Positions 51,008 to 54,824 of a stretch of DNA of 64,000 nucleotides are shown piece by piece. This DNA comes from Escherichia coli. GTDB taxonomy: Bacteria > Pseudomonadota > Gammaproteobacteria > Enterobacterales > Enterobacteriaceae. Position 1 is the first letter of the stretch; each line of letters starts with the position of its first letter. The notes below the pieces were generated by a model, which worked only from the letters and a program-made list of their open reading frames with translations, made no database searches and was not told the DNA's origin. The position numbers and the translations under genes are program-made. The stretch lies in NCBI RefSeq assembly GCF_003991155.1, contig NZ_CP031293.1, one strand, 5' to 3'.

Positions 51008-51739
51008 TTAGGGGGCATGGAAGATGACTTTATAACCTTGCTCACCCCAGTGTTGTAAAAGTTCGTTTTGCCTTCTCGTTGGTGCCATGCCTGTCCAGAC
51101 AATTAATGTTTGCGTCGGGAACAGTTCCGGGCGCGGCGATTCAATGGGATCAGCAAGAACAGAAATGTGCCATCCTGACAATGATAAACGCCATGCTTCC
51201 AGCCACAATCGTGCTCTCTCTTCAACATTCCACGCCATCAGAATGGCTTCTTTACCGGGCTTACGGCGCATTTCGAAAAGCGAGGCTGCTGCGTATTCAA
51301 TTAATGCGCCGTCAAACATACTGCTCATAATGCGGGAGGTGTTGTGATCAAGCACGAGACGCTGGCGAACAGGAAGGTAAACATGATTAATCAATTGATC
51401 TACTGGGTACTCTCGGCCCAGTGAAATAATTCTCGCGCGTAGTTTGGCAGGATTAGCCATACGAAGAATTGACATCATCTCTTCTTGCAGGCGGCTCCAG
51501 TCATCTTCCGTATCCTGGCTGGTGGTTTCCAGTAATGCTTTAACTTTGCCTACAGGGACGCCATTACTTATCCAACGCTTGATCTCTTCGATGCGTTGTA
51601 TGTCTTCTTCATCAAAGAGTCGGTGTCCGCCTTCACTGCGCTGTGGTTTTAACAAACCGTAGCGGCGTTGCCAGGCCCGGAGAGTGACAGGATTAATCCC
51701 GCAACGTTCAGCAACATCACCAATGCTGTAATAAGCCAC
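51008..51739 (-). CDS. bluR: MerR-family transcriptional repressor BluR (YcgE)
   Basis: 243-aa ORF with N-terminal MerR helix-turn-helix [32 protein letters not shown]. Confidence 0.9.
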
Positions 51740-51943
51740 AATTCCTCCTTGCGGTCACAAATCTCCGTCGCCTGTACACGACCCAATAATACTTTGTACA
51801 ATATACGCTAAAATTGTACAAAGTATAAATAAGATTTCAGCTAAATTGAATGAAACATTATTTTTAATGTGGATTAAATTTAAACATAACGTATTCATTT
51901 TCACGATGATTTTCAGAAATCATACGAAATAATGTGCTGGAAA

Positions 51944-53155
51944 TTATTTTTTCTCCGGCCACGCAACTGAAGGGATACCATTCAATTTAGCTTTCGCAAA
52001 CAGATCTCCCTGAAACATCTCAATTCCTGCAGATTCAAGCCACATCCACTCTTCTGGTGTTGTCACACCCATAGCAGAGACTTGAATTTCAAGTGATGTA
52101 CAGCATTTTATGATCGCTTGAATAATTGCCTGCCGTGGCCCGCTTTTATGAACATTGGTAATCAATTCCTGACTGATTTTAATTCTGTCAGGCTGGAAGC
52201 GTGACAGGAGTAACAAACCGGCAAAACCTGCGCCAAAATGATCAATTGCTACACTGATACCGGCAGCCTTAAGCGATTTAATCGCTTCTGCAAACTCATC
52301 AAACCGAGATATGACTTCACTTTCAGTAAATTCAACGATGATTTGTTCAGGCACCAGAGCATTGGCCTTTATTTCATCAAGTAAAAAAGAGACTGCGTCA
52401 GGTTCGTTAACCAGGGTCATAGGTAATAGATTGATTGAAATCATTTTATCACCGAGCTCAAGTGCGTGTGCCATCGCGAATGCAAGCGCCTTACTTTTGA
52501 GATCCGCTGTATAGATTTCCCCGTCTTTACGCTGCCCAACCGCTATAGCTGATGGGCTATCTTCATTTTTTTGCACAATGGCTTCAAAAGCGATTATCCG
52601 CCGCGATAAGGGATCGACAATAGGATGAAAGGCAAAGTGGTCGTTTATAGTTGGTGAAAGGGTACAGGAATCAAGTTCTTTATCAGATCCGTCAGCGATA
52701 AAAAGCCAGGAGTCTTCGGCAGGGATCTCGAAATAGGTTGCTTGTTCGGTTGCAAGGACAAAAGTACGAAAAAATTGCAGCGCTCTGTCATCATAAGTTA
52801 GCTGAAATTTTGATGTGCCTTTGTCGAATACGGCCTGTAAAACGTCATCTCGCTCGTGCAGGCGCAAATCAAATAATTCCATTCCCGCTTTGCCAAAACG
52901 GCGAGCAGGCGCGTAATCGCACATCAGCTCAACAATATTATAGTGCCGTGGATCCTGGCATATAGCCCGATATATCATTTTAACCTGTTCTTCCGGACCT
53001 TCCAGAAGCTGGAAAAAATGAGAACCATTAAACAGTAAGATCCCTGTTACGTCAGACTGCATGTTCCTGCGATTTGCTATCGAAACCATTTCTTCGATTT
53101 TTTTGACAGGTTCGTCGTCACGTATATGGCTACGATAAATAAGGGTGGTAAGCAT
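51944..53155 (-). CDS. bluF: Blue-light sensor BLUF-EAL protein BluF (YcgF)
   Basis: ORF trimmed to ATG (plus-strand cat 53153-53155): MLTTLIYRSHIRDD... (403 aa); N-terminal BLUF domain plus C-terminal EAL-like domain. Confidence 0.9.
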   Translation of the reverse strand: MLTTLIYRSHIRDDEPVKKIEEMVSIANRRNMQSDVTGILLFNGSHFFQLLEGPEEQVKMIYRAICQDPRHYNIVELMCDYAPARRFGKAGMELFDLRLHERDDVLQAVFDKGTSKFQLTYDDRALQFFRTFVLATEQATYFEIPAEDSWLFIADGSDKELDSCTLSPTINDHFAFHPIVDPLSRRIIAFEAIVQKNEDSPSAIAVGQRKDGEIYTADLKSKALAFAMAHALELGDKMISINLLPMTLVNEPDAVSFLLDEIKANALVPEQIIVEFTESEVISRFDEFAEAIKSLKAAGISVAIDHFGAGFAGLLLLSRFQPDRIKISQELITNVHKSGPRQAIIQAIIKCCTSLEIQVSAMGVTTPEEWMWLESAGIEMFQGDLFAKAKLNGIPSVAWPEKK

Positions 53156-53468
53156 TAACTGTCCAGGGTAATGGGAGAGGCGAGAGTAAGACGGTAACAG
53201 ACATATCTTCCGGTGTCTTTCTTTTAATACCAAAACATAACTGTTTCTTTACATTGATAAAAAATGGAAAAAGTTGAAGATGAGTTGGCGAAAATTCTTG
53301 TATAGGTTGTTATTTAAATGATGCAATATTTTTTATCATAACCTGTTGTTTTGTATGTATTAGCACTAAATGCAAAAAATTAATTTATCATTTTGTACAC
53401 ATATTTCGTACAAGTTTGCTATTGTTACCTCACTTAACATTGATTAACATTTTTAACAGAGGCGTAGC

Positions 53469-53705
53469 ATGCATCAAAATTCAGTGACTTTAGATTCTGC
53501 GGGAGCAATCACTCGTTACTTTGCAAAAGCTAACTTGCCTACTCAGCAGGAAACTCTCGGGGAAATTGTGACTGAGATTTTGAAAGATGGACGTAATCTG
53601 AGTCGAAAGTCGCTTTGTGCCAAACTTCTAGGCAGACTGGAACAAGCGACAGGGGAAGAGGAACAGAAACATTATAATGCACTAATTGGGTTGCTTTTTG
53701 AATAA
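53469..53705 (+). CDS. ycgZ: Small regulatory protein YcgZ (YmgA/AriR/YcgZ connector family)
   Basis: 78-aa ORF, first of four small tandem ORFs divergent from bluF. Confidence 0.85.
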   Translation: MHQNSVTLDSAGAITRYFAKANLPTQQETLGEIVTEILKDGRNLSRKSLCAKLLGRLEQATGEEEQKHYNALIGLLFE

Positions 53706-54427: not shown

Positions 54428-54676
54428 ATGAATAATTCAATCCCAGAGAGATTTATTTTGCAATGTGCTTTGTTTAAAAATCTCGAGAGGGAGGTGTTCA
54501 TGACGCATGGGTATGTTGATAGTTATATTATTGATCAGGCTTTACGCTTGCGTTTAAAAGATGAAACCAGTGTGATTCTTTCTGACCTCTATCTGCAAAT
54601 ATTGCAGTACATTGAAATGCATAAGACTACACTAACGGATATCATTATTAATGACAGGGAATCCGTGATCTCTTAG
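54428..54676 (+). CDS. ymgC: Small protein YmgC
   Basis: 82-aa ORF, last of the ycgZ-ymgA-ariR-ymgC cluster. Confidence 0.8.
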   Translation: MNNSIPERFILQCALFKNLEREVFMTHGYVDSYIIDQALRLRLKDETSVILSDLYLQILQYIEMHKTTLTDIIINDRESVIS

Positions 54677-54770: not shown

Positions 54771-54824
54771 ATATCAGGTGTCAAGAATGGAGAGTTCTCG
54801 CTCTCCATTCTTGACACCTGATAT
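54771..54824. repeat. 24-bp perfect inverted repeat (large hairpin or cruciform)
   Basis: atatcaggtgtcaagaatggagag - ttctcg - ctctccattcttgacacctgatat, about 95 nt downstream of ymgC. Confidence 0.7.

Follow-up and report, generated by a model that had tools for sequence, protein, structure and literature searches.

What does the long inverted repeat in front of bluR do, and which protein, if any, reads it? The window analysed here, a 64-kb stretch of Escherichia coli DNA, carries bluR (ycgE; 51008-51739, minus strand), which has a GTG start and encodes a MerR/MlrA-family repressor of 243 amino acids, and bluF (ycgF; 51944-53155, minus strand, stop codon 51944-51946), the BLUF-EAL anti-repressor of BluR; the plus-strand gene ycgZ begins at 53469. 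BluR and BluF are the standard example of a degenerate EAL protein that serves as a light-controlled anti-repressor, and their output (Ymg/Rcs, curli, colanic acid and OmpF) shapes biofilm behaviour. Over 261 nt around the repeat the window is 100% identical to E. coli FDAARGOS_497, and bluR and bluF are annotated in about 4,970 complete genomes. The initial annotation of this DNA read the repeat as a 13-bp perfect dyad that might serve as a MerR-type operator or, alternatively, as a terminator of bluF.

The dyad and the bluR promoter

A perfect dyad is indeed present at this place, and its arms are 14 nt long, one base more per side than had been described. The repeat finder places the proximal arm (ATACTTTGTACAAT) at 51789-51802 and the distal arm (ATTGTACAAAGTAT) at 51813-51826, both given for the minus strand, with a spacer of 10 nt between them (51803-51812, minus strand). 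The dyad thus lies 50-87 nt upstream of the bluR GTG and past the bluF stop codon, at a distance of 117 nt, which agrees with the earlier siting; the description of the bluF-bluR spacer as AT-rich also holds, with a G+C content of 28-33%. Each arm contains one copy of TTGTACAA, box 1 in the distal arm (51814-51821, minus strand) and box 2 in the proximal arm (51794-51801, minus strand), and these are the two copies found in the whole window.

How often would such a structure be expected? The 64-kb window was shuffled 200 times with its dinucleotide composition preserved. Perfect inverted repeats whose arms measure 14 nt or more and whose loop does not exceed 20 nt then numbered 0.01 per shuffle (0.025 when arms of 13 nt or more were counted), against two in the real sequence: the bluR dyad and an unrelated repeat centred near 54797. 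For exact TGTACA pairs with 9-16 nt between them, the expectation is 0.016 per shuffle. The lone hexamer is not enriched in the window (11 found vs 12.5 expected), and three of the 11 copies cluster at 51773, 51795 and 51815. The third copy of this cluster (51773-51778, minus strand) lies in the bluR 5' UTR at +16 to +21, at a distance of 22 bp from box 2. In several E. coli strains, and in a sizeable minority of the genomes of the species, TGTAGA stands in its place, and no other genus examined has a counterpart at the same position; an extra third copy outside E. coli was seen in Superficieibacter only, closer to the start codon. With polymorphism in E. coli and no positional counterpart elsewhere, this copy is unlikely to be part of a conserved site.

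Two further repeats were noted in the same region of the chromosome. The unrelated one (54771-54824) has perfect arms of 24 nt, ATATCAGGTGTCAAGAATGGAGAG and CTCTCCATTCTTGACACCTGATAT, around a 6-nt loop, and, apart from the bluR dyad, no further perfect inverted repeat in the window combines arms of 12 nt or more with a loop of 20 nt or less. It lies about 95 nt downstream of a ymgC-like ORF (54428-54676), and no clear U-tract follows it. The other is a perfect 14-nt repeat (51839-51852 and 51979-51992) with arms that are 126 nt apart and flank the bluF stop codon. This one is probably due to chance: it matches at 13 of 14 positions in K-12, where a T-to-C change in one arm has no compensating change in the other.

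Where does transcription of bluR begin with respect to the dyad? Primer extension placed the bluR 5' end 54 nt upstream of the start codon, and separate promoters were concluded for bluR, bluF, and ycgZ (Tschowri, Lindenberg & Hengge 2012, PMC3509220). Genome-wide profiling of transcription start sites (TSS) found a ycgE start with the same 54-nt leader (8 reads), for which the upstream sequence ends in TATATTGTACAAA, and a minor start with a 45-nt leader (4 reads; Kim et al. 2012, PMC3415461, supplementary file 2). K-12 and the window are identical, without indels, from upstream of the dyad through the GTG. The 54-nt leader therefore puts +1, an A, at 51793 on the minus strand, inside the proximal arm, and the dyad spans -33 to +5; the two methods agree on this main start. 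The minor start falls at 51784 (minus strand), 45 nt upstream of the GTG. It might be objected that the mapped start is a reverse transcription (RT) stop at the base of a hairpin, and this is rejected by the identical 5' end from the sequencing-based TSS profiling. In that profiling an adaptor was reportedly ligated to the RNA 5' end, a thing that an RT stop would not mimic.

A consensus scan finds a -10 hexamer, TATATT (51800-51805, minus strand; -12 to -7), that fits the mapped start, and a -35-like hexamer, TTTATA (51824-51829, minus strand; -36 to -31), separated from it by an 18-bp spacer. The -10 hexamer overlaps the 10-nt spacer between the arms and ends in the T with which box 2 opens, while the -35-like hexamer reaches 3 nt into the distal arm from its outer end. 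The distal arm thus covers -33 to -20, with the TGTACA of box 1 at -27 to -22, and the proximal arm covers -9 to +5, with the TGTACA of box 2 at -7 to -2; this is a promoter location of the kind looked for in a BluR/MlrA-type operator. A protein on both boxes would compete with RNA polymerase at the bluR promoter. The boxes are not the promoter hexamers themselves, a reading that is rejected by the position of the mapped start within the proximal arm and by the 10 bp that separate box 1 from the -10. Another promoter in the bluF-bluR spacer, TTTAAA-16-AATAAT, was predicted from sequence alone (Shimada 2014) and corresponds to 51884..51857; neither start-site experiment supports it.

Conservation within E. 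coli and across genera

Is the dyad under constraint? Within E. coli, 4,593 of 4,969 records match the 46-nt dyad core exactly, and the other 376 carry one mismatch. Two of these one-mismatch variants were sampled (S88 and JCM 5491), and in both the change lies in the loop, which is thus polymorphic within the species, and the arms are intact. For the 80 nt around the dyad, 3,827 of 4,971 records match the window at 99% identity or more, compared with 320 of 4,942 for the neighbouring 80 nt of the spacer, a contrast that is overstated by the fact that the window has a minority allele in those neighbouring 80 nt. A natural disruption of the promoter and putative operator is found in E. coli NZ_AP027902.1 (L018), where an IS1 element sits in the dyad loop (about 51803-51812), the distal arm is replaced, and bluF is truncated.

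For the comparison across genera, 12 loci were taken from a one-genome-per-species scan with BluR and 8 more from homologues at 63-77% identity. A pair of perfect TGTACA hexamers, 11-14 nt apart, precedes a BluR/MlrA-like gene at 18 of 21 loci, in at least 14 genera that include Escherichia, Citrobacter, Klebsiella, Cedecea, Superficieibacter, Silvania, Enterobacter, Scandinavium, Pectobacterium, Dryocola, Pantoea, and Erwinia. At all 18, the proximal hexamer ends 53-64 nt before the start codon. Pseudocitrobacter and Lelliottia (2 of 21 loci) have the pair with one mismatch, and in Kluyvera ascorbata (1 of 21) the site is lost. Elsewhere in the 136 kb of these loci, only two other exact pairs occur, both in the bluF-ycgZ spacer. 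The gap is mostly 13 nt; it is 12 in Klebsiella, Cedecea, and Pectobacterium, 11 in Superficieibacter and Silvania, and 14 in E. coli only.

What exactly has been conserved? An alignment of the upstream 130 nt from 11 sequences of several genera has 19 columns that are fully or nearly conserved; 9 of them belong to the TGTAC cores of the boxes, and 5 of the remaining 10 are the ATG and bases close to it. A T before and an A after the hexamer are favoured across genera (TTGTACAA), and beyond these flanks no consistent complementarity was found across the genera. The long arms are thus a peculiarity of E. coli, and it is the boxes, not the hairpin, that have been kept by selection.

The same hexamer pair, with a gap of 13 nt, lies upstream of genes of Pantoea alhagi (L025, 2912-2936) and Erwinia (L026, 2923-2947) that stand in mlrA synteny, with yohO and yehWXY-like neighbours. 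The Erwinia protein shares 65% identity with BluR vs 56% with E. coli MlrA. Upstream of E. coli mlrA itself (L020, 19040-19290) there is no TGTACA pair, only a lone TGCACA. The presence of the pair in the Erwinia and Pantoea genes makes the arrangement appear older than the split between MlrA and BluR.

In most genera, a GTTAGTTTAG-like motif with a -10-like TAGTTT lies some 10-25 nt past box 2 (loci L006, L007, L009, L012, L022-L024, L027, and L028); it is absent from E. coli and Citrobacter. Promoter scans of three orthologous spacers gave no calls. The motif suggests that the bluR promoter is located further downstream in most other genera, which would leave the boxes at or upstream of the -35, or box 2 over the -35. 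Boxes at or upstream of the -35 in those genera would not by themselves imply repression.

BluR, MlrA, and other explanations

Which regulator would recognise such boxes? The initial annotation had named the ycgZ promoter, the known target of BluR, as the place where the same half-site ought to be found, and it is found there: the known BluR operator, TTGTACA-CATATTT-CGTACAA (53393-53413, plus strand), has the form TTGTACA-N7-CGTACAA, with boxes at -39 to -34 and -26 to -21 of the ycgZ start. The BluR footprint at ycgZ comprises a TGTAC...GTACA palindrome that overlaps a GTACA...GTACA direct repeat, and point mutations in this operator abolish both binding and repression by BluR (Tschowri 2012, PMC3509220). 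The csgD promoter, which contains an MlrA site, is also shifted by BluR in EMSA, at lower affinity than ycgZ (PMC3509220). In K-12 this MlrA site reads AAAAGTTGTACA-TTTGGTTTTTAT-TGCACAATTTT, that is, TGTACA-N12-TGCACA. Within the bluR dyad there are two perfect copies of the TGTAC/GTACA core that is common to the ycgZ operator and the csgD site.

On this evidence, the dyad is probably the E. coli form of the conserved TGTACA pair, a BluR operator placed on the core promoter through which bluR would be subject to negative autoregulation. Five points are joined in this reading: the core motif, the position on the promoter, the conservation across genera, the conservation within E. coli, and the fact that the dyad is neither a terminator nor a known RNA. 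BluR as the bound protein, repression as the effect, and the stoichiometry are what we infer for the dyad. Much of the BluR/MlrA-type operator in the initial annotation thereby stands, namely the half-site shared with ycgZ, the overlap with a promoter, and boxes that recur across genera; the emphasis on a long dyad does not, for the conserved part is a pair of hexamers.

How might such an operator act? BluR would occupy both boxes, one in the spacer just past the -35 and the other between the -10 and +1. In this position it would exclude RNA polymerase and lower transcription of its own gene. Once activated by blue light or cold, BluF pulls BluR from the DNA, so that bluR would be derepressed along with ycgZ-ymgABC. 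The outcome would be a negative feedback loop, in which the switch is re-set and BluR is kept low and buffered.

There are points that count against BluR as the ligand. The gap between hexamers is 14 nt at E. coli bluR and 11-14 nt across genera, vs 7-8 nt at the ycgZ operator in all genera; the spacing of the ycgZ type is thus not found at the bluR dyad. The bluR gap comes closer to the 12 nt of the csgD MlrA site, which BluR binds weakly. Moreover, a 3-bp variation in the gap is considerable if the protein is a rigid dimer. As for published data, PMC3509220 shows the bluR promoter sequence with no mention of a BluR site there or of autoregulation (the string 'autoregul' occurs 0 times), and no report of a BluR site at bluR, of BluR autoregulation, or of an EMSA, footprint, ChIP or reporter assay on the dyad was met in the part of the literature that was searched. 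The bluR guide RNA dropped out of PPTP-seq, and the tunable-TF library paper contains no bluR promoter results.

Could the boxes belong mainly to MlrA? If MlrA, and not BluR, held them and controlled bluR, the c-di-GMP/curli module would be coupled to the BluR-Ymg-Rcs module. BluR and MlrA share 49% identity overall and are near-identical through the helix-turn-helix and recognition-helix region (see also Tschowri 2012, PMC3509220), which means that sequence cannot by itself tell which paralogue binds. The gap of 11-14 nt, near that of csgD and unlike that of the ycgZ operator, indicates that MlrA may be the main or an additional ligand, and the same box pair precedes the Erwinia and Pantoea genes in mlrA synteny. 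However, the site travels with the regulator gene that it precedes, for which autoregulation is the best fit, no such pair lies upstream of E. coli mlrA, and an MlrA-type site is bound by BluR in vitro (PMC3509220). Control mainly by MlrA is unlikely, though not negligibly so.

A view that gives room to both paralogues is that the TGTACA pair is an ancestral self-operator of the MlrA/BluR family, which was kept at bluR after the duplication and lost at E. coli mlrA, with the bluR promoter as a node of competition between BluR and MlrA. We regard this as possible but rather doubtful. If it were true, the c-di-GMP/curli switch would be wired directly to the blue-light/cold Ymg-Rcs switch, and the longer arms and the +1 spacing in E. 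coli would tune which paralogue wins.

Or does the dyad act as RNA? On read-through transcripts from bluF it could form a hairpin, either a weak terminator or a 3'-end stabiliser between the bluF and bluR units, which have been reported to be separate transcription units (Tschowri 2012, PMC3509220). The predicted stem is 14 bp long with an energy of -14.8 kcal/mol (z = -5.1) and is retained in the minimum-energy fold of a 101-nt context; moreover, no other terminator-like structure is called in the bluF-bluR spacer, and the E. coli arms reach beyond the boxes. Nevertheless, the stem is AU-rich with a loop of 10 nt and is followed by UAUUGGGUC, not by a U-tract, and the terminator scan makes no call either in E. 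coli or in the three orthologous spacers examined. In other genera the hairpin is weak or absent despite retained boxes, and the flanks outside the boxes do not covary. Since the bluR mRNA starts inside the 3' arm, the hairpin cannot form on it. The published Term-seq tables searched contain no bluF or bluR entries, and an Rfam scan at permissive E-values found nothing relevant, with one chance-level snoRNA match inside bluR (E = 0.25). A role on read-through transcripts would also leave the conserved boxes unexplained. The bluF terminator of the initial annotation thus fails for want of a U-tract, of a terminator call, and of a conserved hairpin, and a hairpin role of any such kind is very unlikely.

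Other DNA-binding proteins have been placed at this locus, such as the TetR-type regulator RcdA, which binds TTGT..ACA-like sequences, SrsR, and H-NS. The RcdA box is TTGTnnACA, RcdA palindromes contain TGTACA, and RcdA footprints the ycgF-ycgZ spacer; however, its consensus TTGTNNACA has 0 matches in the bluF-bluR spacer, the sole match in the locus being the ycgZ operator (53393-53401), and ycgF/ycgZ is present in the RcdA SELEX lists whereas ycgE/ycgF is absent. An RcdA site at the dyad is thus rejected, TTGTnnACA being absent from the bluF-bluR spacer. A gSELEX peak of SrsR lies in the bluR<bluF spacer, and SrsR is an activator of bluR, but its TCAGATTTTGC-like box bears no relation to the dyad. 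H-NS is listed for the bluF-bluR spacer with a SELEX signal (Shimada 2014), but would not account for the conserved hexamers. It is very unlikely that any of these proteins is the main reader of the dyad. A further explanation, already disfavoured and given a very small chance, is that there is no dedicated site and that the symmetry is a by-product of AT-rich promoter sequence and chance: the spacer is AT-rich and TTGTACAAT holds -35-like and -10-like strings (the scan lists TACAAT as a possible -10), but only 0.01 such repeats are expected per shuffle, the boxes are kept across at least 14 genera where the surrounding promoter sequence is not, and the hexamers that suit the mapped bluR start differ in position from both boxes.

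Further boxes of the same type are found outside the bluR promoter. In all but one genus examined, a lone TTGTACA(A) box is found on the bluF side of the ycgZ operator, 94-96 bp away from it (for example L002 1415, L006 1363, L007 1443, L011 1478, L012 1538, L022 1399/1421, and L023 1401/1423). In K. pneumoniae the distance is 120 bp, and in Enterobacter and Scandinavium the box is paired with a second one at a gap of 16. The E. coli version, TTGTATAG at 53298-53305, has degenerated to TGTATA and falls on the 'promoter-distal' sequence TTGTATAGA that RcdA protects (PMC3535384). This box may serve BluR as an auxiliary operator, with DNA looping or control of bluF as conceivable roles. Klebsiella pneumoniae L009 has three intergenic TGTACA copies (4818-4823, 4842-4847, and 4916-4921) about 1.1 kb downstream of the bluR homologue, a cluster that may be a further target of the BluR/MlrA regulator family.

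Comparison with known operators

What would an operator at bluR add to the known circuit? RegulonDB and EcoCyc are not known to give BluR targets other than ycgZ-ymgA-ariR-ymgC, and in 2009 the regulon was reportedly given by Tschowri as eight small proteins. With bluR, a candidate target would be added to a regulator and a motif that are both already known, which is incremental to the known regulon and not a new mechanism. If BluR does repress itself, a negative feedback loop is missing from current circuit models; such a loop would set the BluR:BluF dosage, quicken the response, and re-set it after light or cold. The comparative results yield a cleaner recognition element for the family, a TTGTACA(A) box at two or more spacings, and would date the auto-operator before the duplication of MlrA and BluR.

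Among the nearest known counterparts of the bluR dyad is the ycgZ operator, which belongs to the same locus and regulator family and has the same TGTAC/GTACA core (TTGTACA). In both cases, two boxes lie on a core promoter with an 18-bp spacer, and one box is found at about -27 to -21. The second box lies upstream over the -35 at ycgZ, whereas at bluR it lies downstream over the -10 and +1. Binding is proven at ycgZ, with gaps of 7-8, while the bluR dyad, with its gap of 14, is a candidate from sequence. The csgD MlrA site, reported in 2010 and quoted in PMC3509220, resembles the bluR dyad in its two TGTACA-type hexamers with T/A-rich flanks, in its gap (12 vs 14), and in its total length of about 34-38 bp. 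Unlike the bluR dyad, which covers the core promoter, it is placed far upstream of the start site (about -113 to -146) and is activating; its second hexamer is TGCACA in K-12.

Does the dyad qualify as a MerR-type operator, as the initial annotation proposed? The regulator is of the MerR family and a dyad is present; the layout is not that of a canonical MerR site. Like merO, zntA, copA, and soxS, the bluR promoter would be read by a winged-helix regulator, and its dyad symmetry touches a spacer that is longer than the optimum (18 bp). However, canonical dyads are about 18-22 bp long, are centred in a spacer of 19-20 bp, and serve activation through DNA untwisting. With a spacer of 18 bp and an element of 38 bp that reaches +5, the bluR dyad has neither the spacing nor the compact form of such sites, and its centre (51807.5) is about 7 bp away from that of the promoter spacer (51814.5). 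Unlike canonical MerR proteins, BluR is known only as a repressor, and the layout looks like a classical repressor operator over the -10 and +1.

The nearest solved DNA-binding domains to BluR are those of CarH/LitR (5c8d and 3whp; E about 1e-13). CarA is freed by the anti-repressor CarS, and an analogy to BluF and BluR has been drawn (Tschowri 2012, PMC3509220). CarH, LitR, and CarA are light-controlled MerR-like repressors with operators that overlap promoters; unlike BluR, they bind B12 through their C-terminal domains, and their operators are direct repeats. The units read by CarH are repeats of the TnnACA type, a pattern that TGTACA fits, and CarH/LitR bind as flexible oligomers. By analogy, and as a lead only, variable spacing of the boxes would be tolerable if BluR behaves like CarH/LitR.
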